A DNA stretch of 64,000 bases from an uncultured Thermodesulfobacteriota bacterium. Its GTDB lineage: Bacteria; Desulfobacterota; DSWW01. The DNA is taken from contig CAYLMK010000005.1 in assembly GCA_964384945.1 (NCBI GenBank), positions 99,549 to 163,548 on the forward strand, given 5' to 3'. The notes under the pieces are model-generated. The model searched no databases, had not been told where the DNA came from, and was given only the letters and a program-made list of their open reading frames with translations. The first letter of the stretch is position 1; each line of letters starts with the position of its first letter. This document shows positions 12,894-41,044 of this stretch, in pieces. A program made the position numbers and the translations under genes.

Positions 12894-13574
12894 GTGATGA
12901 GACGGAACAAGTTTGGATTCGAGATCGGCCTGGGGATCCTTTGCATTGCACTCTACGGTATCTTCTCTTTCTGGTATGGCGGTTCGGGCGGGGGTAAGCT
13001 CTCTCGGGAAGAGGTTGACGCCTACCTATCGAAATTGGAGACAGATGCGGGTATTCCGGAGGAAGTGAAGAACGACTCGTTGGAGCGACTGCGCGCATGG
13101 GGTGAGGCGGATGACGGCGGGCCGGTGTACATGCTGAATCTGATGCGTGCCCGCGAACAACCCTATCTGTTCCCGGGTACGCCAGCGGATTTCCGCGGTA
13201 CGGCCGAAGAGGCGAACCGGATCTATGAAGATCACGCCATGCCGTTATTGGTCAAGCGCGGCGGCATTCCGGCGGTGTGGGGCAATGCCCAGGGGAAGAA
13301 TGTGATCGGCGGCGGGCCGGGACTGGATGAATGGTCCCGGCTGGGTTTCATCCGTTACCCGAAACGTCGCGCCTTCTTCGAGCTGCTCACGGACCCGGAA
13401 TATGTGAAGATCGGGCATTTCAAGTTCATGGGCATGGAATTTATCCTCGTACCCACATCGGCGGAAATGGCGATCCCGGACCTGCGGCCGATTGTTGGAG
13501 GGGCGCTCGCGATCCTCTTCCTCGGCCTCGGATGGTTCCGCTCGGTCATGCGCGCTCACGGCGCGGATTCCTGA
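12894..13574 (+). CDS. Membrane-anchored DUF1330-like (dimeric alpha/beta-barrel) protein
   Basis: N- and C-terminal transmembrane helices. The central region ('PLLVKRGGIPAVWG...LGFIRYPKRRAFFELLTDPEYVKIGHFKFMGMEFILV') resembles DUF1330. Confidence 0.35.
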   Translation: MMRRNKFGFEIGLGILCIALYGIFSFWYGGSGGGKLSREEVDAYLSKLETDAGIPEEVKNDSLERLRAWGEADDGGPVYMLNLMRAREQPYLFPGTPADFRGTAEEANRIYEDHAMPLLVKRGGIPAVWGNAQGKNVIGGGPGLDEWSRLGFIRYPKRRAFFELLTDPEYVKIGHFKFMGMEFILVPTSAEMAIPDLRPIVGGALAILFLGLGWFRSVMRAHGADS

Positions 13575-14809
13575 ACGGCAGGGCGGGCCTCCGCTCGACC
13601 GCCGGCCCCGTTTGCTCTGCCTTCCTTCACGAAAAAGAGGAGTACCGAAGCGGCCGCGGTCAGCCCGATCGACACGTAGAGAGGCACGAAGACCCCCACC
13701 CTGTCCCAGAGAAGCCCGGCGAGCAGCGAAGAAGGCAGGGCACAAAGGCCTACGACCATCTGAAACCCTCCGAGCGTGCTGGCCCGGTAGGCCTCGGGGG
13801 AGAGCTCGGAAACGAAGGCCCTTTGCACCGGCTCGATCGCGCCTTTGTGCAGCCCGTAGAAAACGAATGCCGCGGCCACGGCCTCGCGGCTTCGGAAGAA
13901 GGCCAGGCAGAGGCAGACCAGCCCCCAGAAGACGAACGAGGCCATGAGCACCGCCCGCCGGCCCAACTTGTCCGCCAGTCTGCCGAAGGGAAGCGAGGCC
14001 AGGGCGGCGACCGCCGTGAAAAGGAGGTAGAGCACGGGGAGGGACCCCGCCCGGTAGCCCCGTTCGCTCGCGTAGAGGAGAAGAAACGAGTAGCTGAAGG
14101 ACCCGAGGGCGAAGACCGCACTCAGGAAGAGGAACAACCTCAGGTTACGATCCAGCGCCGAGAGGGAAATCCCCCGGTAGAGCCGCGTTTCGGCGGGCTT
14201 GCCCTCCCGGATCATGAGAAATACCAGAATTGCGCCGACCCCGGAAGGCAGCGCCGCCAGCAGAAAGAGGGACCGATACCCCAGGGCACCGACCAGCGCG
14301 ATACAAACAAGGATACCGCAGACCGCCCCGAGGTTGTCCATGGCCCGCAGCACCCCGAAGTGCGCGCCCCGGTTCTGGCCGTTGGATACGTCCGCGACCA
14401 TCGCGTCCCTGGGCGCGCCACGCATCTTTCCGGACCGGTCCAGTACCCGGAAGGGGATCACCTGCTGCCAGGTTGCGGACAGGGCGTACCCGACCCTGGA
14501 CCCGGAGGCGAACAGGTAGCCAAGCCAGACGAAGACCTTGCGCCTTCGAAGCCGGTCGGACGCGTAGCCGGATGTCGCCTGCGAGAGGGAAACGAGCGCG
14601 TCTCCCAGGCCGTCCAGCAACCCGAGAACGGACATGCTGGCGCCGAGCCCGGCCGTAATGAACACGGGCCAGATCGGATAGATCATGTCCGAGCCCAGAT
14701 CGTTCAGGAAGGAGGCCAGGGCGAATACGGCGATCGTTCTCTTGGTCTGTTTTCGGTCCAAGGGAGATCCCGGGCGGAGGGGACGACGGGATTCGGATAT
14801 GCCCGCCAA
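13556..14809 (-). CDS. MFS transporter
   Basis: 417 aa, about 12 predicted transmembrane helices. MFS signature-like 'GYASDRLRRRKVF' and 'LADKLGRRAVLM' lie in the loops between TM2-3 and TM8-9. Confidence 0.85.
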   Translation of the reverse strand: MAGISESRRPLRPGSPLDRKQTKRTIAVFALASFLNDLGSDMIYPIWPVFITAGLGASMSVLGLLDGLGDALVSLSQATSGYASDRLRRRKVFVWLGYLFASGSRVGYALSATWQQVIPFRVLDRSGKMRGAPRDAMVADVSNGQNRGAHFGVLRAMDNLGAVCGILVCIALVGALGYRSLFLLAALPSGVGAILVFLMIREGKPAETRLYRGISLSALDRNLRLFLFLSAVFALGSFSYSFLLLYASERGYRAGSLPVLYLLFTAVAALASLPFGRLADKLGRRAVLMASFVFWGLVCLCLAFFRSREAVAAAFVFYGLHKGAIEPVQRAFVSELSPEAYRASTLGGFQMVVGLCALPSSLLAGLLWDRVGVFVPLYVSIGLTAAASVLLFFVKEGRANGAGGRAEARPAVQESAP

Positions 14810-15064: not shown

Positions 15065-16363
15065 CTACCAGGCGAGGGAAACCGAGGCGAAGATGCGGTC
15101 CTCCTCGGTGTCGTACCAGTCGTCGTTCGATCGGTTCCAGAGGTGCACGTAACCCAGGTCCGCGGACACCCCGGTCGGGAAGGCCCATTCGAAACTGCGG
15201 GAGAACTCGCCCCGCACTTCGAGTTCGTAACGTTCGTCCCGCCGTTCTTCCCCTGCCGGATCCTTCGGGGCTCCTTGGAGGTCCAGCGCCTCTCTGCCGA
15301 CGTACCGTCGCTCCTCGATCAGGCCCCTGGCGACCATGCGCACGCTTCGCGGCAGGAGCAGGGAGAACTGCACAAGCCCGCCCGGCCCCTCGTACCCGTA
15401 ATGATCGTCGAGGAAGTCCCTGTCCAGGCCGGGGATCGTTCCCTCGGCGAACCGGGGCGGGTCCAGGAAATTGGTCCGGTACGTGCCCTCGGCGAAGATG
15501 CCTGCCCGGGAGCCCAGGGCCTGGGCAGCCCTGGCTGCGAACAGGATCTGCCCGGCCGATTGGGATGACCGGTTTCCTGTGATCGTCGTGCCGGGCGGCG
15601 GCTCCTCCTCCGAACCCTGCCACCTCACACGCCCCCGACCGCTGCCGCCGGGCTGCCCCGGTCCGCTGCCGGGGCCTCCGCCACCGCCCCCCGGCCCCGG
15701 TGAATCCCCGGGCCCGGCCGCAGCGGCGGCCAGGAGTATGCCGGAGTCCCCCTGGCCGCCCGGCGTACCGGCAGCCGGTTCCTCGGGCACAGACTCCAGG
15801 TATCTTCTGAAATAGAGGGTGCCTCCCAGGCGGAGCGTGGTCTTCGTTCGAAAGGACTTGTTCGCGATAAGGTTACCGATCGACTCGACATAATCCAGAC
15901 CGTCCAAATCGGGGTAGGTTCCCCAGTAGCCCTGGATGCCTGGAATGATCAGCGTCTTCTTCAGCGGCCGCCAGTTCAGGTCCAGGCGGCCTCCGACCCG
16001 GTGGTGGTCCAGGTTGTTCGTATCGGACACGTGGAGGGTCCCGCCGTATCCGATCTCCGCCTCCAGCTCGTGGGCCTCGCCGACCTGGGCCTGGTAGAGT
16101 GCCGATGCCCTCTGCCAGAGGGCGTTCAGTTCGCTGTTGTCGTAGTACAGGTAACCGTTCAACCTGTACAGCATTCCGAAATCCTCTCCAAGGTCGGCCC
16201 GCACATGCCCGAAGGGCATGGCGACAAAGTCTTCCAGCGAGGAGGCGGTCAGGTAGAGATTCTCGGTCCACGTGCCCTCCAGGCCGACCTCCCCCTCTAC
16301 GGCCGCCCACGACCCGCCCGGGAAGAGCGCGAGGAGGAGTGCACAGAACAGGCAGGCCTTCAA
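15065..16363 (-). CDS. Outer-membrane beta-barrel protein with central Gly/Pro-rich low-complexity insert
   Basis: Probable TTG start giving 'MKACLFCALLLALFPGGSWA|AVEG', a signal peptide with an AxA cleavage site. The C-terminus ends '...ASVSLAW', an aromatic terminal residue typical of OMPs. Alternating amphipathic strands. The internal segment 'GPGDSPGPGGGGGGPGSGPGQPGGSGRG' is low-complexity. Confidence 0.6.
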   Translation of the reverse strand: MKACLFCALLLALFPGGSWAAVEGEVGLEGTWTENLYLTASSLEDFVAMPFGHVRADLGEDFGMLYRLNGYLYYDNSELNALWQRASALYQAQVGEAHELEAEIGYGGTLHVSDTNNLDHHRVGGRLDLNWRPLKKTLIIPGIQGYWGTYPDLDGLDYVESIGNLIANKSFRTKTTLRLGGTLYFRRYLESVPEEPAAGTPGGQGDSGILLAAAAAGPGDSPGPGGGGGGPGSGPGQPGGSGRGRVRWQGSEEEPPPGTTITGNRSSQSAGQILFAARAAQALGSRAGIFAEGTYRTNFLDPPRFAEGTIPGLDRDFLDDHYGYEGPGGLVQFSLLLPRSVRMVARGLIEERRYVGREALDLQGAPKDPAGEERRDERYELEVRGEFSRSFEWAFPTGVSADLGYVHLWNRSNDDWYDTEEDRIFASVSLAW

Positions 16364-16367
16364 GCCG

Positions 16368-16757
16368 TCACCTCCCGCCCCTGCCCGGACCGGCGCCCGG
16401 ACCGCCGCCGCCCGGCCCCTGGCGTCCCACGGACCCTCCGTCCGCCTCCTCCGGGCCGACTCCACCCCTCTGGTCGTCCTGACCCCTGTGCCGGCCTCGC
16501 TTCCGGTGCCGTTCCATCTGCCTATCGTCCAATCCGTCCCCATCCTCGTCCACGAAACGGTCCCCTTCCGCATTGCTTCCCATGTCCACGTAGCCCGTGT
16601 CGCTCCGGGCCTCGAGAAGATCAGGCTCGTCGATCGTGAACGGCGGGCCCTTCGGAGATATCGTCCGGGCGCTCGCGTCTGCGGGCCGCAGACAAACCAC
16701 GAGCCCCCAGAGCAAGACGGGGATCACGGCGTTCCGGGAATTGCACGGCCTCTTCAT
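16368..16757 (-). CDS. Small secreted acidic protein with thrombospondin type-3-like Ca-binding motif (paralog 2)
   Basis: Starts 'MKRPCNSRNAVIPVLLWGLVVCLRPADASA' (signal peptide). Contains 'RFVDEDGDGLDD' (DxDGDGxxD) and an Arg/Gly-rich tail. It is paralogous to the upstream gene. Confidence 0.55.
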   Translation of the reverse strand: MKRPCNSRNAVIPVLLWGLVVCLRPADASARTISPKGPPFTIDEPDLLEARSDTGYVDMGSNAEGDRFVDEDGDGLDDRQMERHRKRGRHRGQDDQRGGVGPEEADGGSVGRQGPGGGGPGAGPGRGGR

Positions 16758-16845
16758 GGTTTTCCTCCCGGGGCGGGGGCCGGGACGGTTCGGGGCCCGG
16801 GGCCGCCGAACCGTCCTTGTCGCCCGCATGCTCATCCCCATCCCT

Positions 16846-17313
16846 TCAACGGCCCGCCCGAGCCCCTTTGCCTCCGCGGGACGAAGACGTTTCGGATCGG
16901 CTTCCGCCTTCGGTCATCTGCTTCCCGTACTTGTTTCCGGTCCCGTCCCTCTTGTTCTTAACCCACTCCTCATCTTGACAGTTCGGAATCCCGTCTCCGT
17001 CATGGTCCGGGGCGAGATCGTTGATCCCGTCTCCGTTCTCATCGACGAAGCCGCGTCCCCGGGCGTACGGGGCATCTGCCCCCATGTCCCCGTAGCGGTG
17101 CTGTTCCTCGTTCCGGTGGCTCCACGCGTGCCGGTACGTGTATTCCGATTCGCTCTGCCCGCCCGCGGATTCCGAGGGCGTCCGCTGGAGCGCGGTCCCG
17201 GCTCCGGGAGCGCCTTCGCCGGTCTGTCCGGCGGATACGAACCCTTGGGACATGGGAATCGCCATGCAGCCCCCGATCGCCAACACGATGAGAATCTTCC
17301 GGTAGCCTTTCAT
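16846..17313 (-). CDS. Small secreted acidic protein with thrombospondin type-3-like Ca-binding repeats (paralog 1)
   Basis: Starts 'MKGYRKILIVLAIGGCMAIPMSQG' (signal peptide). 'GFVDENGDGINDLAPDHDGDGIPNCQDEEW' gives two DxDGDGxxD loops and an 'NCQD' like the TSP3 'DNCP'. An RBS (GGAGGGAAAACAAATG) is present, and the gene sits just downstream of a sigma-54 promoter. Confidence 0.6.
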   Translation of the reverse strand: MKGYRKILIVLAIGGCMAIPMSQGFVSAGQTGEGAPGAGTALQRTPSESAGGQSESEYTYRHAWSHRNEEQHRYGDMGADAPYARGRGFVDENGDGINDLAPDHDGDGIPNCQDEEWVKNKRDGTGNKYGKQMTEGGSRSETSSSRGGKGARAGR

Positions 17314-17365
17314 TTGTTTTCCCTCCCTGTATGCGGTTGCCGGATGCCTTTCGAATGGGGAGGGG

Positions 17366-17382
17366 AGCAAGGGGTGTGCCAA
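17366..17382 (-). promoter_or_regulatory. sigma-54 (-24/-12) promoter
   Basis: The minus strand reads 5'-TTGGCACACCCCTTGCT-3', matching TGGCAC-N5-TTGC with exact GG-N10-GC spacing. It lies ~40 nt upstream of the ATG at 17313 and directly downstream of a sigma-54 enhancer-binding protein gene. Confidence 0.65.
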
Positions 17383-17532
17383 GGAAAGCCGGAACCGGGG
17401 AGATCCTATATTCTCTCAATATATCAACTGGTTTCAGACGGAATCGGCCATCCGGTTCCGGGCTTTGTGACTCGAACCCGGTAATGCTGCCGGCCTTCTT
17501 CGACCATTCCTGCCTGTTCGCCGCGGGCGCCC

Positions 17533-18903
17533 TCATCGGCCGGCCACCCCGTATTTGTCCATCTTGTAACGGAGGTTCCGCTCGCTGATTCCCAGTAGCT
17601 CGGCGGCCCGGGTGCGAATGCCGCCTGTCTGTTCGAGGGCCCGGATGATCACGTTCTTCTCCAGGACCTCCACCATTTCCGCGAGCGTCGCCTTCCCCAG
17701 CTCGATTTCAGGGCCGGCCCCCGGGGCGCTGCAGTGCCGGATCGAGGGAGGCAGATCCTCCCGTTCCACCCGCGTGCCCCGACTCAGGACCACGGCCCTC
17801 TCGAGGGCGTTTTCCAGTTCCCGTACGTTTCCGGGGAAGGAATACCTCATCATGGAGTCGAGGGCTTCCGGCGACACGCCTTCGATCCGCTTCCTGTTCC
17901 TGTCCGCGTGCTTTGCGACGAAGTGTTCGACGAGCAGAGGGATGTCGCTGCGCCGCTCCCGGAGAGGCGGTATCGCGATGGAGACCACATTGAGCCGAAA
18001 ATAGAGATCCTGCCGAAACCTTCCCTGTTCGAGCATGCCCTCCAGGTCCTGATGGGTAGCCGCAATGATCCTCACATCCACGTGCACGGTCTCGTTGCCT
18101 CCCACGCGCTGGAAGGCCTGTTCCTGGATCACGTTGAGCAGCTTGACCTGCACGGGCAAGGGAAGGTCTCCCACCTCGTCGATGAAGAGGGTTCCGCCAT
18201 CCGCCTGCTCGAACCTCCCAATCCGCATGCGGTCCGCCCCGGTGAAGGCTCCCCTCTCGTGGCCGAACAACTCGCTCTCGAGCACCCCGGGGGACAGGGC
18301 CGCGCAGTTGGTCTCGACGAAAGGCCCTTCCCTCCGGTCGCTCGTCAGGTGGATCGCGTTCGCCAGCAGCCCCTTGCCGGTGCCGCTCTCGCCCCGAATC
18401 AGGACGGTCGCTCGGCTTTTGGCCACGCGGGCGGCCAGGTTCAGCGCCTCCTGCATCGTGCCGCTTTCGCCGATGATCTGGTCGAACCTGTAGCGCTCCG
18501 CCAGACGCTCCCTGAGTTCCAGGTTCTCACGGACCACTGCCTGGTGGGAGAGTGCCCTCTGCAGCAGCGCCTCGAGCTGCGCGAGGTCGATCGGCTTGAC
18601 GAGAAAATCCTCCGCACCCTCCTTCATCGCCTCTACGGCGGTCTCCACGGTCCCGTATGCAGACACGAGGATCACCCCGACGACCGGGTTGATCTCCTTG
18701 ACCGCCTTCAAGACCTGGACGCCGTCCGTATCCTTCATGCGGTAGTCCGTGACCACCACGTCGCAGATCCTCTCGCGGAAGATCTCCACGGCCCGGGCCC
18801 CGTCCGGGGCCGTCACCACGTGGTGGCCCTTCTTTCGGAGGAACCCGGCGATCATTTCCCGCTGGTTTTCTTCGTCGTCTACGACAAGAACCCTTCCCTT
18901 CAT
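17533..18903 (-). CDS. sigma-54-dependent two-component response regulator (NtrC family)
   Basis: Receiver domain ('VLVVDDE...', the phospho-Asp in 'VVTDYRMK'). AAA+ sigma-54 activation domain (Walker A 'GESGTGKG', the 'GAFTGA' loop, 'FRLNV...'). C-terminal Fis-type HTH ('RTRAAELLGISERNLRYKM'). Confidence 0.95.
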   Translation of the reverse strand: MKGRVLVVDDEENQREMIAGFLRKKGHHVVTAPDGARAVEIFRERICDVVVTDYRMKDTDGVQVLKAVKEINPVVGVILVSAYGTVETAVEAMKEGAEDFLVKPIDLAQLEALLQRALSHQAVVRENLELRERLAERYRFDQIIGESGTMQEALNLAARVAKSRATVLIRGESGTGKGLLANAIHLTSDRREGPFVETNCAALSPGVLESELFGHERGAFTGADRMRIGRFEQADGGTLFIDEVGDLPLPVQVKLLNVIQEQAFQRVGGNETVHVDVRIIAATHQDLEGMLEQGRFRQDLYFRLNVVSIAIPPLRERRSDIPLLVEHFVAKHADRNRKRIEGVSPEALDSMMRYSFPGNVRELENALERAVVLSRGTRVEREDLPPSIRHCSAPGAGPEIELGKATLAEMVEVLEKNVIIRALEQTGGIRTRAAELLGISERNLRYKMDKYGVAGR

Positions 18904-20990
18904 GCGTCCGGCCCTCCCTGGGGAATGCGCACCGTTGCCCGGGTGCCTTCCCCCTTGCGGCTCTCGATGCCCAGGAATCCTCCGTGCCGCTCGACAATCT
19001 TCTGGCTGATCGCGAGGCCCAGGCCCGTCCCTTTTTCCTTGGTCGTGAAATGCAGATCAAAGGCCTGCTCGAGCTCGGCCGGGGTCATTCCGCATCCCTG
19101 GTCTTCCACGAGGATGCATACCCATCCGTCCTGCCGCAACGCGGAGATCTTCACCTCACCCCCGCCCCCCATGGACTCGATCGCGTTCGAGACGAGGTTC
19201 AGGAGCACCTGCCTCATCTGTTTCACATCCATCACGGCCGTCAAGCCGTCAGGCGCTTCCGAGGAGAGTAAAATCCCCTTTCCGGCGGCCGGACCCGCCT
19301 GCTGGGTCATCACGGATTCGATGAGCGCGCCCACATCCTCCTCCCTCAAGGCGATCTTGGGCTCGCTTGCGAATCGAAGAAACTGGGTGATGATCCCGTC
19401 CAGGCGGGCGATCTCCGAACCGATGACGTCCAGGAAGCGGAGGTATTCCTCCCTGCCCGCTTGCGGCTCGAATTCCGCGCGGAGACGCTGCGCGGTCATT
19501 CCAATAGCGTTCAACGGGTTGCGCACCTCGTGGGCGACCGCTGCGGCGAGCCGGCCCAGGGCCGTGATCTTCTCCGCCCTCTGAATCTGCTCCCTCAGAC
19601 GCCGCTCCTCCGTCACGTCCCGCAGGATGACCACCGCGTACGGATCCTCCTCCCCGGGCACCGTCACCTTGGAGGCCGACAGGGTCAGGAAGCGCAGCCT
19701 TCCATCCATGCCCCGGATCTCGAGACCCTGCGCCGCGGGCGCGCCCCCTCGAAGGGTCTCCCGGACCAGGGGGTCGATCCCCTCCGGCACCAGTTCGATC
19801 CGCTCCCCGAACATGCTTTTCGATACATCGTTTGCCAGGGCCACCCTGCCGTCCTCGGCAACGACGAGCACGCCGTCCGCCATCCCGGAGAGCACGCTCC
19901 CGGAGAAGGTGGCCACCTCATCACGCGCCCGGACCGCGAGATTCATGTTCTGATAAATCACCACCGCATTCAGGGCGATCACCCCGAGCAGGGAAAGGAC
20001 AGCGATTGTGATCAGCATGCGCTGCAGGGACTTCCTCTCCAGGGCGCGGATCTCGTGCAGGTCAAAGGCGAGTCGAAGGAGCCCCAGCTTCTCTCCGTCG
20101 GGCGCGACCGTCCTGACCACCTCGAAAACGTCTTGCCCCTCGAAAGGCACCATCCGGGTGGCCTCTCCCCCCTCTTTCCACAGGGAGGCGAGAAAAGGAT
20201 CGTCGAGGATCCGTCTGGCCCCTGAGATGTTGGGCGTGGCGGTCAGAATCCCCCCTTCGTCCTGGATCATCACGTAGCTGACCCCGTGAACCCTGCCCAC
20301 GTCCCGGACCCAGCGGCCCAGGCCGAGCGTCTTGCGAAGTTCGAGGAGGACCGAGGCGTCCACGCTGCACAGGACGATCCCGCCTTCGCTCCTTCTGGCC
20401 GCGGCAGCGAAGCGGGCCTTTCCGTCCGTGGAGCGGTAGTGCAGGCCCGGGACCGATTCGCGTTCCTCTCCGGAGAAGAGGCCCGGAAAGAGTTCACGGT
20501 AGTCCGGTGGGGCCCGGTCCGGAAAGGACTCGTCGGGCCGGCTCGAGGCCTGTACACGGCCGTCCGCCCCCACGAGGTGGATGGCCTCGATGTCGTTCTC
20601 CAGGGCGACCCCGGCGAGGATTTCGGCGCCCGGTCTGCCTCCCTGTTCCATTCTCGCCACGGTCCTGGCCACGGTGAGAAGCCTGGTTTCAAGGTTCCAC
20701 TCGGCCTCATCCATGGCGCGCAGGGCGAAAACGGCCCCCTGCTCAAGCTGGCCGGCCGCGATCTTTCCCTTCTCCGCGATCAGATGGAGCATCGTCCGGC
20801 GGGCGTTGCGCACCTCGAACAGGGCGACCGCCACCATGAAGACAGCGAGGATCCCGCCGATCACGGCCAGATAGCCGGGCCGGATATACCAGAGATGCCT
20901 GCTCACCCGGCCCCCATCCGTGCAAGGCAAGACGGATCGTTTTCGATTCCCATGTTCTTGATTTCTACACGACCCGGGGGCGAAGGACAA
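18900..20990 (-). CDS. Sensor histidine kinase with periplasmic sensing domain, PAS, HisKA and HATPase domains
   Basis: Two transmembrane helices flank a periplasmic domain of ~300 aa, followed by PAS, then the H-box 'AHEVRNPLNAI', the N-box 'LLNLVSNAIE', and G-boxes 'DQGCGM' and 'GTGLGLAI'. The 4-nt overlap (ATGA) with the downstream regulator indicates an operon. The true start is probably an internal GTG/ATG near 'VSRHLWYIRPGYLAVIGG'. Confidence 0.9.
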   Translation of the reverse strand: MSFAPGSCRNQEHGNRKRSVLPCTDGGRVSRHLWYIRPGYLAVIGGILAVFMVAVALFEVRNARRTMLHLIAEKGKIAAGQLEQGAVFALRAMDEAEWNLETRLLTVARTVARMEQGGRPGAEILAGVALENDIEAIHLVGADGRVQASSRPDESFPDRAPPDYRELFPGLFSGEERESVPGLHYRSTDGKARFAAAARRSEGGIVLCSVDASVLLELRKTLGLGRWVRDVGRVHGVSYVMIQDEGGILTATPNISGARRILDDPFLASLWKEGGEATRMVPFEGQDVFEVVRTVAPDGEKLGLLRLAFDLHEIRALERKSLQRMLITIAVLSLLGVIALNAVVIYQNMNLAVRARDEVATFSGSVLSGMADGVLVVAEDGRVALANDVSKSMFGERIELVPEGIDPLVRETLRGGAPAAQGLEIRGMDGRLRFLTLSASKVTVPGEEDPYAVVILRDVTEERRLREQIQRAEKITALGRLAAAVAHEVRNPLNAIGMTAQRLRAEFEPQAGREEYLRFLDVIGSEIARLDGIITQFLRFASEPKIALREEDVGALIESVMTQQAGPAAGKGILLSSEAPDGLTAVMDVKQMRQVLLNLVSNAIESMGGGGEVKISALRQDGWVCILVEDQGCGMTPAELEQAFDLHFTTKEKGTGLGLAISQKIVERHGGFLGIESRKGEGTRATVRIPQGGPDA

Positions 20991-21083: not shown

Positions 21084-21126
21084 CCGCCTCCCATTCGAAC
21101 GGAAGACCTTGCAGTATTCAAGGATG

Positions 21127-21411
21127 CTACCGGCGCTGAGGGATCACATCGATGACCAAGATATCCTCTTCACCCACAAAACCCAACGGCTCTTCCTCAG
21201 TATCGGTGATCAAAAGCCCCTCGAGTACAAGCGTGTTGTAGTCCCCGACGACCAGGCTGTCCAGGGCCTTGACCTCCTCAATCGAAAACTTCGCAACGAA
21301 GTTTCCGCGATCGTCCGCCTTATAGCTCTTTATCGGGATCCCGTTGAGGGAGACCGAGCCGGTTTTGTTTGGATGAACGGAGTCTACGCTGGTGGAAGAA
21401 TCGGACCGTGC
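21127..21411 (-). pseudogene. Orphan ~95-codon ORF lacking any start codon (gene remnant?)
   Basis: The minus-strand frame reads '...SVDSVHPNKTGSVSLNGIPIKSYKADDRGNFVAKFSIEEVKALDSLVVGDYNTLVLEGLLITDTEEEPLGFVGEEDILVIDVIPQRR*'. It looks protein-like, with no Pro/Arg/Gly bias, but has no ATG/GTG/TTG upstream in frame. Local GC is clearly below the window average. It is not in the ORF track. Confidence 0.3.
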
Positions 21412-21951
21412 GGATCACCTCCTCTCGCAAGGGTTTCGAATGCCTGTCGAGCCGCCGCGGATCTCCGCCTCCGATCGACCCCGACGGCGGTCCGACCGTC
21501 CGTCGGAGCTGCTCGAAAAGCAAGTGTCGTGCCGGGGAGCGCTTCGTCTCCGCAAGGCTCCGGTTTTCCGATTGTATGCAAGGGTTGGACAGGACGCGGA
21601 AGGCGACCGGGGCGCTTGTCGCCGTCCCGAATCGGCAGGGCTGCCGATTCCCCCGGACGATTCTTGCCGGGTGCCGCACCCTTTTCCCTTGATTCGATCA
21701 TCCAAACGTGCGATCGTGCCTGACGACCCGCGAACCGCCGCGGCTCAAGCTGCGGGAAAATGAGGGGGCTTTGCTCGCCGCGACGACCGTCGGATCAAGC
21801 CGCGTCGGATGGCACGGCGTGAATCGCCCGTGCGATCGTGGAATTCGCCTATTGCACATCGAGTTCGTAAAGCGAACCGACTCAGAACCGCGAGGAACCG
21901 GCCATGTTTTGGACATTTAGAAAGGCCTCCTATCGGGCTTACCAGGCGGGC

Positions 21952-38987: not shown

Positions 38988-39842
38988 CTACGTCTCCCCA
39001 CCGTGACCGGCGCGGATCGCCCGGCGGTAGAGGACCCCGATGCACAGAGAACTCAGGACAACGACCGGCAGGGTGAGCCGGACGAACCGTCGCCGCATTT
39101 CCGTCAGCACGTTCGTCTGGGCCTCCTCCAGAATGCCGCCGGACCGCACGAGTTGCTCCTCCGGCACCGGGAGAACACAAAGCAACTGTTCTCCCACAGG
39201 CGCCACGGCCAGAAACCAGCTTCGCTTCTTCGACCGATCCGGAGAACCGGGCATGTCGATCGCAAAATAGCCGCCTCGGATCCACTTCCTCTCCATTCGC
39301 CGCATGGTGCGAAGAAAGGCCTCCCTGCCCTCCGGCTCATTCAGAAAGGCGGCCGATCCGAAGGGCGGCTCGGAGGGGTACAGGATGCGCAAGCCTGTCC
39401 GCTCCATCAGGATGAATGGCTCATCGGGTCCGAAGAACAGGCGGAATCGCTCCCCCCATGCCTCGACGAGCGCCTCGAGCCCGGCCTCCGCGATCGGCTC
39501 GCTCCCCCCGTCCTCCGGCCGGCTCGCCAACCGCACCGCTCCGGCGAGCCGGGACTGGACATGCTCCTTGTATAGGTACATACCGTACAGCCGCGGCAGG
39601 GCCTCTGCCTCGCCCTGAAGGCTCTTGAGCGTCGCATACGCGTATATCCACAGGGCCCACAAAGGAAGTATCGTCACAACGAGCACTGCCTTTGAGAAAA
39701 ACCTCGGGCTCATGCCCTCTGTGTTCCTGAAACCCATCCAGGCACCCCCGGAATCCGTGCAAAGGGGATTTCGTCCGTTCAACCCGACCGCATCGCTCCG
39801 GCCGGCCCGCCCGGCTCTGTGCGCGAAAACAAGGCCTCCCAC
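38988..39842 (-). CDS. Hypothetical membrane protein
   Basis: N-terminal signal-anchor 'FFSKAVLVVTILPLWALWIYAYA' and C-terminal TM 'LTLPVVVLSSLCIGVLY'. No family recognised. The start is uncertain, and the ORF overlaps the upstream pseudokinase ORF by ~60 nt. Confidence 0.35.
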   Translation of the reverse strand: MGGLVFAHRAGRAGRSDAVGLNGRNPLCTDSGGAWMGFRNTEGMSPRFFSKAVLVVTILPLWALWIYAYATLKSLQGEAEALPRLYGMYLYKEHVQSRLAGAVRLASRPEDGGSEPIAEAGLEALVEAWGERFRLFFGPDEPFILMERTGLRILYPSEPPFGSAAFLNEPEGREAFLRTMRRMERKWIRGGYFAIDMPGSPDRSKKRSWFLAVAPVGEQLLCVLPVPEEQLVRSGGILEEAQTNVLTEMRRRFVRLTLPVVVLSSLCIGVLYRRAIRAGHGGET

Positions 39843-41044
39843 CTGGCCAGGGCGCCGGAGTCGGAGATCTCGTCAAGACCCCGGGAGCCCGCCACCAGCA
39901 TCGCCCCCAGGGCCAATCCCAGGTTGAGGAGCGTCAGGAGAACGAGGCAAACGACCCGAGCCCTGTCCGCGATGAGAGGGGCCGGAGCGCCTGGCTCCGC
40001 CGACGTCTCTCCGACGGTTCCCCATCGCCCGCTTCGTGCCCGCAGCCCGGCCTCTCGGGCCGCAGCCTTCGAGACAGGGCGCTCTCCAACGAGGCGGTCC
40101 GCAGCTTTGCCCAGCTCCTGTCGACACGATCCCCGGACCCAGAGCCCTTCCAGGGCCGCAGCCAGATCGGATGGGGCGGCGTATCTCTCTTCCGGGTCCT
40201 CGTCAAGGGCCCGGAGCAGGATCCGGTCGACAGCCTCCGGAAGCCCCGGCCGCATTCCGCTCGGTCTGATGAAACGACCGGTCGGCCCCCGAAGGGTGAG
40301 CAGGCTGTAAAGGATCGCGCCCACGCCGTAAATATCCGCCTGTCTCCCAAGGGGCCGGCAGGCCACGAACTCGGGACACCCGTAGCAGGAAGCCTCCTCC
40401 TCCAGACCCTCGAAGGGCCTGCGCAGAACCGCTCGCAGCATGGCCCGGATGCCGATGTGGGCCATTCTCGGAAAGAAGGGAATCGGGCCGTCGGGCCACG
40501 GGTCGAGATAGATCTCCAGGGGATGCAGGAATCCGTGAACCGCCGAATCCTGCACCCCCTCGAGGGCTCGGCACAGCAGCCAGGCAATGCCGAGGGCCTC
40601 CCGGTCCGTGAAGGGCTGATTCCTTCTTCTCCGATCGCGAAGGATTTCGGAAAGGGACTGCCCCCGGGGGGACTCTTCGACGAAGTAGAACAGGGCACTT
40701 GTCTCGCCCGCCCCGAGAAGGTTCAACAGGAACGGGCTCGAGAACCTGCCCAACTGTTCCGCATGGAATCTCAGTTGCGCGGATGCCTGGGGAAAATCCC
40801 GGAAGATGGCCCGTGGGAATGCGACCAGCAACACCGGCCTGTCTTCCTGCGGGTCAAAGGCCCTCGTCAGGCTGAAGACATTTTCCTGGCGCAGGGTGTT
40901 GAAAACCTGGTATCGTCCCCCCACGCACTGACCGAAGTGCAGGCGGGGCTCGCATGCCGTCGAGTTCAAGGAAACCCCCCTTGCGAAAGGGGACAAGCGA
41001 CAAACATATTTTATATTATAGAATAGATTTTGCACAGAAGACAA
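39779..41044 (-). CDS. Predicted pseudokinase (degenerate Ser/Thr protein kinase-like domain) with C-terminal transmembrane helix
   Basis: The kinase-like C-lobe is recognisable ('ADIYGVGAILYSLLT', 'RYAAPSDLAAALEGL'). The catalytic motifs are degenerate: 'HGFLHPLEIYLDP' replaces HRDLKPxN, there is no VAIK Lys and no DFG, and 'PEF' replaces APE. C-terminal TM 'VVCLVLLTLLNLGLALGAMLVAG'. The true start is probably downstream of the AT-rich 5' end. Confidence 0.45.
   Translation of the reverse strand: MSSVQNLFYNIKYVCRLSPFARGVSLNSTACEPRLHFGQCVGGRYQVFNTLRQENVFSLTRAFDPQEDRPVLLVAFPRAIFRDFPQASAQLRFHAEQLGRFSSPFLLNLLGAGETSALFYFVEESPRGQSLSEILRDRRRRNQPFTDREALGIAWLLCRALEGVQDSAVHGFLHPLEIYLDPWPDGPIPFFPRMAHIGIRAMLRAVLRRPFEGLEEEASCYGCPEFVACRPLGRQADIYGVGAILYSLLTLRGPTGRFIRPSGMRPGLPEAVDRILLRALDEDPEERYAAPSDLAAALEGLWVRGSCRQELGKAADRLVGERPVSKAAAREAGLRARSGRWGTVGETSAEPGAPAPLIADRARVVCLVLLTLLNLGLALGAMLVAGSRGLDEISDSGALARWEALFSRTEPGGPAGAMRSG

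Follow-up and report, generated by a model that had tools for sequence, protein, structure and literature searches.

In Escherichia coli, ZraPSR is an autoregulated sigma-54 two-component system that is coupled to a small periplasmic protein. Type 11 secretion barrels, which resemble another part of the locus described here, are defined by the Pfam family PF04575 (Slam, NilB and HrpB) and export neighbouring lipoproteins or soluble proteins; their cargo is often metal-related (PMC8406197; 10.1101/2024.09.26.615229). The canonical exporter is a 14-strand barrel with an N-terminal periplasmic TPR domain, and its cargo carries a C-terminal 8-strand barrel (PMC8406197; 10.1101/2024.09.26.615229). 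PF04575 also captures 16-strand barrels of the PgaA type (PMC8406197), and type 11 secretion systems (T11SS) have been described as predominantly proteobacterial (10.1101/2024.09.26.615229). Here we analyse a stretch of DNA from an uncultured Thermodesulfobacteriota bacterium (contig CAYLMK010000005.1), in which a minus-strand cassette encodes a sensor histidine kinase (HK), an NtrC-family sigma-54 enhancer-binding response regulator (EBP), two small secreted proteins (S1 and S2) and an outer-membrane beta-barrel protein (OMP). Judged from the sequence, this NtrC-type system very probably uses a conserved palindromic enhancer to activate two sigma-54 promoters, one in front of the S1–S2–OMP genes and one in front of its own operon.

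Throughout, the window is the whole 64,000-nt stretch and all coordinates are positions in it unless a relative's locus is named; L-numbers (L004, L041 and so on) denote the loci of relatives and P-numbers denote homologous proteins. An earlier reading of the DNA without database searches (the sequence-only reading) had proposed a self-contained regulon in which the activator drives its own downstream operon of secreted, thrombospondin type 3 (TSP3)-like proteins and an outer-membrane barrel.

Organization of the cassette and its regulators

The list of open reading frames (ORFs) and the sequence place all five genes on the minus strand, in the order HK (18900–20906; Pfam, NCBIfam and a PDB sequence match), EBP (17533–18903; Pfam and NCBIfam), S1 (155 aa, 16846–17313; ORF and homologue alignment), S2 (129 aa, 16368–16757; ORF and local similarity to S1) and OMP (432 aa with a TTG start, 15065–16363; homologues and an AlphaFold2 (AF2) model). 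The longest HK ORF extends to 20990, but the start is likely to be the GTG at 20906, because the public gene call of 668 aa agrees with it and homologue alignments begin there. The EBP gene overlaps the HK stop by 4 nt (ATGA), and the gaps between EBP and S1, S1 and S2, and S2 and OMP measure 219, 88 and 4 nt, in agreement with the overlap and the distances of about 220, 88 and 4 nt first reported for these genes. This gene order is kept in every close relative with enough sequence (L004, L041, L043, L087, L088 and L089), and partial cassettes occur in L086, L044 and L045. The flanks vary among relatives and include HDOD/HD genes, an MscS-type channel and a molybdo-oxidoreductase, with a major facilitator superfamily (MFS) transporter solely in the window. 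The five genes thus stay linked in all close relatives while their neighbours change, as expected of a self-contained module.

The domains of both regulators bear out their initial description as a histidine kinase and an NtrC-type activator. HK comprises a first transmembrane helix (TM1), a periplasmic domain of about 265 aa, a second helix (TM2), and PAS, HisKA and HATPase_c domains; HisKA and HATPase_c scored above the curated Pfam cut-offs, and PAS_4 was also found. The sole family match of the sensor, sCache_3_2, was below threshold (23.9 bits against a cut-off of 28.4), and the closest PDB sequence match of the HK core was ZraS (9jfj). In EBP, a receiver domain (Response_reg, 96.4 bits, residues 5–114) with a phospho-acceptor Asp readable in VVVTDYRM is followed by an AAA+ domain (Sigma54_activat, 236.5 bits, residues 143–309, with AAA_lid_14 also found) and by a C-terminal Fis-type helix–turn–helix (HTH_8, 55.9 bits, residues 411–451); the translation shows the GAFTGA loop and the Walker A sequence GESGTGKG. 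Among NCBIfam models, AtoC/AtoS ranked best and ZraR/ZraS second, all under the equivalog cut-offs (for EBP, AtoC 540.4 against 714, ZraR 471.6 against 760 and NtrC 437.5 against 558.6). The periplasmic domain of HK is 27–31% identical to that of module kinases in Bacteroidota and Ignavibacteriota. Given that these sensor domains are homologous across phyla, the comparison suggests one signal common to the module kinases; the search for homologues of the sensor domain gave, among the matches listed, at least seven, all of them fragments.

A conserved putative enhancer and an exact −24/−12 promoter match precede S1

Scanning the window with the consensus pattern TGGCAC-N5-TTGCW returned a single exact match, TGGCACACCCCTTGCT at 17366–17381 (−); the expectation from dinucleotide-preserving shuffling is 0.02, matches having occurred in 2 of 100 shuffled sequences. 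This site, termed P2 and predicted to drive S1–S2–OMP, is the near-perfect promoter that the sequence-only reading had placed ahead of S1, and it turned out to be both exact and phylogenetically conserved. P2 has the form TGGCAC-N5-TTGCT, its GG and GC elements lie exactly 10 nt apart, and it ends 52 nt before the S1 ATG; with transcription starting near 17355, the leader would be about 42 nt long. Between 14700 and 21900 no sigma-70-like site was found. When the EBP–S1 intergenic regions of close relatives were aligned, P2 occupied the same position in all of them, and four conserved blocks stood out amid diverged DNA: an enhancer, an AT-rich stretch, the −24/−12 element and a block in the leader.

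The enhancer block, GGTCGAAGAAGGCCGGCAGCATTACCGGGTTCGAG at 17471–17505 (−), is the predicted EBP site for P2 (upstream activating sequence 2, UAS-2) and holds the core palindrome CCGGCAGCATTACCGG at 17478–17493. In close relatives the block follows the consensus GGTCGAAG-N3-TCGGCAGGATTGCCGA-N2-TCGAC and its core the consensus TCGGCA-N4-TGCCGA. UAS-2 is conserved in nine of the nine close relatives that hold the region, 111–116 nt from the promoter (start to start). The core pattern alone is nothing unusual, with 6 matches in the window against 4.9 expected. The near-palindrome initially put forward as the activator site, TTACCGGG ... CCCGGAA at 17457–17484 (−), is indeed present, but only its upstream arm is conserved and its downstream arm is not; as an enhancer it was misplaced, the conserved palindrome at 17478–17493 sharing one arm with it. 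A conserved site for integration host factor (IHF) was also considered in this region and rejected, the near-consensus AAACCAGTTGATA being found in the window only and the relatives being merely AT-rich there.

The leader block, GAAAGGCATCCGGCAACC at 17335–17352 (−), lies downstream of the predicted start site and ahead of the ribosome-binding site of S1. Seven of nine close relatives keep it almost unchanged and the two most divergent retain part of it, in a leader that otherwise varies. For 17335–17352 we found no stable fold and no Rfam match, and Rfam searches of the whole window and of the leader region gave no family and only a sub-threshold match to isrK.

A second predicted control unit lies upstream of the regulator genes

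When one mismatch to the consensus was allowed, the window held a single further promoter match. This site, P1 (CGGCACGACACTTGCT at 21519–21534 (−)), is a sigma-54-type promoter one mismatch from consensus and lies upstream of the HK–EBP operon. The predicted EBP site for P1, UAS-1, is a perfect palindrome, TCGGCAGCCCTGCCGA at 21632–21647 (−), and starts 113 nt upstream of the P1 start. A composite pattern of enhancer and promoter, CGGCA-N4-TRCCGR-N{90,105}-GGCAC-N5-TTGC, matched only the P1 and P2 units in the window and nothing in 100 shuffles. Both UAS–promoter pairs recur in L004, L041, L043 and L088 with offsets of 111–116 nt, those upstream of the HK operon being 115–116 nt. From the presence of a second UAS and sigma-54 promoter upstream of HK we predict positive autoregulation. 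The conserved enhancer and promoter ahead of S1 are thus consistent with the proposal that the activator drives its own downstream operon, but the regulon is wider than had been supposed, with a second unit ahead of HK and beyond the segment on which that proposal was based.

In relatives, the gene between P1 and the HK–EBP genes encodes a secreted protein of 134–135 aa, for which neither a Pfam match (intact relatives) nor a PDB match (sequence search with the 135-aa protein) was found. The window retains a 5′-truncated remnant of this gene at 21127–21366 (−), which in tblastn is 56–60% identical to residues 62–136 of L004:5046–5453 and of the L088 homologue. What survives is the final 77 or so codons, in a frame with neither a start codon nor a signal-peptide region. 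A public plus-strand gene call (21109–21723) overlaps the remnant; its ORF of 199–204 aa has no family and is Arg/Pro/Gly-rich in its second half, and the call is probably spurious and antisense to the remnant.

S1 and S2 are small proteins predicted to be exported and disordered

Sec-type signal peptides can be read from the sequences of S1, S2 and OMP, in line with the earlier description of secreted small proteins and an outer-membrane protein; those of S1 and S2 end in VSA|G and ASA|R. S1 contains a Y.YRN.W.HRN motif, the loops DENGDG and DHDGDG, a DGTG motif and a basic Gly-rich tail. S2 is an S1 paralogue (local similarity, E = 3e-5) with one DEDGDG loop, a basic His/Arg stretch and a conserved C-terminal GPGRGGR. 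Among 390 S1 homologues, which include proteins of metagenome-assembled genomes (MAGs) labelled Calditrichaeota and KSB1, the alignment defines an invariant core, GF.D..GDG.ND.A.D.D.DG..N..D..W.....DG, with invariant DxDxDG loops; each homologue has one to four of these units in tandem, with a unit length of about 35–50 aa. The mature proteins contain about 20% Gly, 17–20% Asp and Glu, 13–15% Lys and Arg and only about 10–13% hydrophobic residues. The AlphaFold model of S1 has a mean pLDDT (predicted local distance difference test score) of 50, with only residues 90–120 near 70, and lacks beta-strands. Both proteins are accordingly predicted to be intrinsically disordered with a small loop-forming core.

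The DxDxDG loops of S1 and S2 are, by their motif, of the calcium-binding type. Neither protein belongs to a Pfam or NCBIfam family or has a PDB sequence match, and the Pfam models TSP_3, TSP3_bac and Excalibur gave no match to S1 or S2 at E ≤ 0.1 (for TSP3_bac, the relative P0063 gets no further than E = 0.78). The label 'TSP3-like' therefore holds as motif resemblance at the level of DxDxDG and not as family membership, given that the TSP3 and Excalibur models do not match and that S1 is predicted to be disordered. A lipoprotein assignment of S1 was rejected, as the Cys in LAIGGC is not conserved. We also observed that the multi-repeat S1 homologue P0073 has the precomputed Pfam accession PF27309; this may be a very recent family that already covers the repeat FVDENGDG...DGDGIPNGQD.

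Between S1 and S2, a GC-rich stem–loop (GGACGGTTCGGCGG...CCGAACCGTCC, 16783–16816 (−)) is conserved at the same place in nine relatives. Its stem of 13–14 bp is mainly conserved in sequence, with one pair showing a compensatory change, and no T-tract follows it. The element could stabilize the mRNA or direct its processing, setting the ratio of S1 to S2 and OMP. As a third enhancer site the hairpin was rejected, its half-site spacing not being conserved.

The barrel is distantly related to export barrels

OMP has a signal peptide and an invariant C-terminal Trp (...SLAW), and its AF2 model shows an all-beta barrel of 16 antiparallel strands (pLDDT 62), as the outer-membrane barrel of the sequence-only reading would require. 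A Gly/Pro-rich disordered insertion of about 78 aa interrupts the barrel. Metagenomes contain 21 close homologues (52–70% identity), and an exhaustive profile search gave a family of 321 representatives at 50% clustering. No TPR domain was found in the window OMP or in ten family members, and mature OMP starts directly with beta-strands. The window OMP had no Pfam match at E ≤ 0.1 and no NCBIfam family, and searches of PDB sequences with OMP profiles were likewise empty. Of the 94 aligned family members, however, 27 match PF04575 (SlipAM/DUF560) at E ≤ 0.01, the best with E = 7.5e-9. Because of this distant DUF560/SlipAM relationship we favour export, both over a simple porin and over a static structure such as the putative Ca-binding assembly of the sequence-only reading.

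The insertion (residues ~193–270, GPGDSPGPGGGGGGPGSGPGQPGGSGRGR) shares its Gly/Pro/Arg composition with the tail of S2 (GPGGGGPGAGPGRGGR), and the module's monohaem cytochrome c at L091 (5209–5829) also has a basic Gly/Arg-rich stretch near its C terminus. These stretches, common to the barrel, S2 and the L091 cytochrome, may be a targeting or interaction feature, or may reflect compositional bias.

The module and its control signature recur across phyla

In species-representative genomes, we found 34 distant OMP relatives (22–33% identity) in MAGs labelled Ignavibacteriota, Bacteroidota, KSB1 and Candidatus Zhuqueibacter. A phmmer screen showed the distant loci to be ordered as activator, small DxDxDG proteins, OMP and kinase. 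Cross-phylum counts were based on the 73 distinct OMP loci from both scans, 45 of which have at least 3.5 kb of upstream sequence. Within these 45, an activator gene is present at 37, a promoter at 32, and a promoter with an enhancer 60–170 nt upstream at 30; loci missed by the promoter regular expression have a TTGT variant of the −12 element plus the enhancer. The kinase is adjacent at 45 of 53 OMP loci. In other phyla its gene stands at the end of the sigma-54 operon, so the feedback would be kept there in another arrangement.

The enhancer of the distant phyla consists of tandem TCGAC-N6-GTCGA palindromes, 22 bp apart from centre to centre and about 75–150 nt upstream of the promoter; its half-site variants TCGGC and GCCGA have the core that is found in the window lineage too. 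Across L006–L039 and L048–L085, the loci from Bacteroidota, Ignavibacteriota and KSB1, the −12 element reads mostly TTGA and sometimes TTGT, not TTGC, so that the usual GC dinucleotide is lost; examples of such promoters are L007 6792–6807, L009 6984–6999 and L028 5779–5794.

In several Bacteroidota loci, the enhancer is shared with a second sigma-54 promoter of divergent orientation. This promoter precedes, in L011, L019, L025 and L027, the gene of a secreted multihaem cytochrome c with a length of about 450 aa (L011 4734–6098, L019 4799–6148 and L027 4747–6147, all on the minus strand). The L019 cytochrome matches Cytochrom_NNT and Cytochrome_C554 and contains five CxxCH motifs, and the only PDB sequence match of these multihaem cytochromes is a weak one to cytochrome c552 (5ze8). 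In L020 and L035 the divergent promoter precedes a ferritin-like gene of the DUF2202 family, which at other loci lies inside the operon; a subset of the Bacteroidota loci carries such genes (L028 6228–7004, L035 5717–6310 (−), L091 6571–7293 and others). The one paper that we found to mention DUF2202 ties it to ferrosome (fez) iron-storage clusters. Such repeated association with redox and metal proteins is the sole functional hint that the comparison offers.

The signature also occurs away from the regulators. At L092, two S genes and an OMP gene each have their own enhancer and promoter, with no regulator gene within 6 kb, and at L090, from a Calditrichaeota MAG, a lone S gene has an enhancer exactly 113 nt upstream of its sigma-54 promoter. 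Enhancer and promoter before S genes at such sites indicate that the signature marks a dispersed regulon.

Neighbouring genes and further observations

The MFS transporter gene (13556–14809) was considered as an operon member and rejected. It is about 255 nt away and, since it is not conserved beside the cassette in relatives, we place it outside the unit. In L004 and L005, a DUF3373/Porin_5 outer-membrane protein gene (593–2807 (−)) has a sigma-54 promoter at 706 (−) with the same −24/−12 element as the P1 of that locus; there is no enhancer of the module type, and a different, PAS-containing sigma-54 activator adjoins. This gene and its promoter look like an independent pairing of sigma-54 control with an outer-membrane protein. 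Elsewhere in the window, a 421-aa ORF at 39779–41044 (−) matches the NCBIfam anti-phage protein kinase MADS6 with E = 8e-11 and 41 bits, against a cut-off of 460, and is probably just a generic kinase-like domain.

Proposed mechanism and alternatives

In the account that we favour, the kinase would sense a periplasmic signal through its conserved domain of about 265 aa and would phosphorylate the NtrC-family activator, which would in turn bind the palindromic enhancer about 113 bp upstream of each of the two −24/−12 promoters. P2 would drive S1–S2–OMP, and P1 would drive the kinase and activator genes, giving positive feedback. The disordered, Asp/Gly-rich S1 and S2, with their calcium-type DxDxDG loops and basic Gly/Arg tails, would be exported by Sec, and the third product would form a 16-strand outer-membrane barrel, a distant relative of DUF560/SlipAM export barrels. 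Taken as a whole, an autoregulated sigma-54 two-component cassette with surface-directed S1/S2 and a barrel appears to us the reading with a moderately good chance of being right. More tentatively, and with somewhat less than even confidence, we propose that S1 and S2 pass through the barrel or are anchored by it at the cell surface and that their acidic loops bind divalent cations there. A bolder and doubtful extension is that this TPR-less, 16-strand relative of type 11 barrels belongs to an unrecognized, self-regulated secretion module for small disordered proteins, widespread in Bacteroidota, Ignavibacteriota, KSB1 and the window lineage and possibly recognizing its cargo through basic Gly/Arg tails. 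Its regulon would share a single signature, a TCGAC-N6-GTCGA-type enhancer about 113 bp ahead of a sigma-54 promoter, and, by taking in the cytochromes and DUF2202 proteins of other phyla, would amount to an inducible extracellular system for handling metals or redox.

Several points weigh against this account. On the regulatory side, the promoters, enhancers and phosphorelay are all predictions from sequence, the first base of P1 is C instead of T, and the gene originally served by P1 is truncated in this genome. For the effectors, no metal-binding family matches S1 or S2. The window OMP itself lacks a PF04575 match; matches in its family are confined to roughly the last 120 residues, and just 3 of 10 individually scored members exceed the 22-bit cut-off. 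Moreover, of the canonical type 11 features, neither an N-terminal TPR nor a C-terminal 8-strand barrel in the cargo is seen here, and the model, at pLDDT 62, suggests 16 strands instead of 14; we therefore do not class OMP as a type 11 member.

The alternative that survives best keeps the same regulation but leaves S1 and S2 in the periplasm as ZraP-like cation buffers or chaperones, with the barrel as a passive or ion-selective channel. The HK core most resembles ZraS, EBP scores high on ZraR as well as AtoC, and ZraPSR itself offers the analogy of an autoregulated sigma-54 system coupled to a small periplasmic protein. The conserved Asp/His motifs of the barrel, LDHH and FDDHYGYEG, could line a pore. 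A CDF cation-efflux gene beside the cassette in one relative would also fit, but this neighbour is not conserved among relatives. S1 and S2, however, show no similarity to the CpxP/Spy/ZraP family, the sole Pfam relationship of the barrel family is to export barrels, and S and OMP genes are paired so tightly and so widely that a cargo with its translocon is the likelier parallel. We regard periplasmic buffering as rather unlikely.

Extracellular fibres are another possible destination of unfolded export. FapB and FapC pass through FapF, and CsgA passes through CsgG; S1 and S2 could likewise be disordered matrix or fibre subunits that are exported unfolded through the barrel and cross-linked in a calcium-dependent manner by their DxDxDG loops. 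Their predicted disorder, abundant Gly and low hydrophobicity would suit such a role, as would the one to four tandem repeat units of S1 homologues and the inclusion of 16-strand PgaA-type barrels in PF04575. Yet there are no amyloid-type Q/N repeats, the cassette has no accessory nucleator, chaperone or synthase genes, and S1 and S2 are highly charged, which argues against amyloid; we judge the fibre role improbable.

Finally, although consensus scans can mislead, it is hardly credible that the P2 match is fortuitous, that S1–S2–OMP is expressed by read-through or from an unrecognized sigma-70 promoter and that the activator's targets lie elsewhere, because the exact promoter was seen once against 0.02 expected by chance (50-fold), promoter and enhancer keep a constant spacing in the nine close relatives and in other phyla despite divergence of the DNA around them, and no sigma-70-like site was found around the genes.

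The sensor, activator, enhancer, promoters and targets of the favoured autoregulated cassette can all be read from the sequence, which is rare for an uncharacterized sigma-54 regulon, and the same diagram holds across distant phyla. Wherever a genome encodes the activator, its regulon could be listed from the signature of enhancer and promoter. Through its distant link to DUF560, the barrel would broaden type 11-like export to lineages outside the Proteobacteria and to cargo of a new kind, and co-regulation with multihaem cytochromes and ferritin-like proteins in other phyla hints at a cell-surface metal or redox physiology in abundant, little-studied environmental bacteria. Were the export model wrong, the cassette would still be a clean example of an autoregulated envelope response. 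No curated Pfam or NCBIfam family was found for S1, S2 or OMP, and literature searches turned up no paper on the module; its effector families and enhancer motif, like its conservation across phyla, appear to be undescribed.

Comparison with described systems

Each part of the cassette can be set beside a described counterpart. The small proteins recall TSP3 and Excalibur loops, in that the S1 loops DENGDG and DHDGDG and the S2 loop DEDGDG, with the spacing D.DGDG..N.QD, resemble bacterial TSP3 repeats; here, however, there is a single unit per protein, no confident fold and no Pfam match. Like type 11 secretion systems, the cassette has a lone outer-membrane barrel gene beside small, Sec-exported putative cargo, and part of its barrel family matches PF04575. 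It differs in that the barrel has 16 predicted strands and no TPR, and the putative cargo is predicted to be disordered and lacks a C-terminal 8-strand barrel. Furthermore, the cassette occurs in Bacteroidota, Ignavibacteriota, KSB1 and the window lineage, no TonB or TonB-dependent receptor lies near it, and control is by a sigma-54 two-component system.

Among NtrC-family systems, AtoSC supplies the best models for both regulators (AtoC with 540 bits for EBP and AtoS with 226 bits for HK) and shares their domain order, but neither score reaches its equivalog cut-off (714 and 646, respectively), the AtoS match is limited to the PAS and kinase core, and the target operon of the cassette has nothing to do with acetoacetate metabolism. 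The ZraPSR systems of E. coli and Salmonella match the cassette in having a membrane kinase with a periplasmic sensor, an NtrC-family activator and a small Sec-exported envelope effector, as well as sigma-54 promoters for effector and regulator genes alike, which provide autoregulation. The cassette departs from them in its scores (HK 175.6 against the ZraS cut-off of 479, and EBP 471.6 against 760 for ZraR), in a sensor of about 265 aa that does not match ZraS and in effectors that are DxDxDG proteins of predicted disorder and not of the CpxP/Spy fold. An outer-membrane barrel is part of the operon here, and the promoters are arranged in tandem instead of divergently around a shared enhancer. 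Its regulatory design is nonetheless a textbook one, and is closest in logic to that of ZraPSR.

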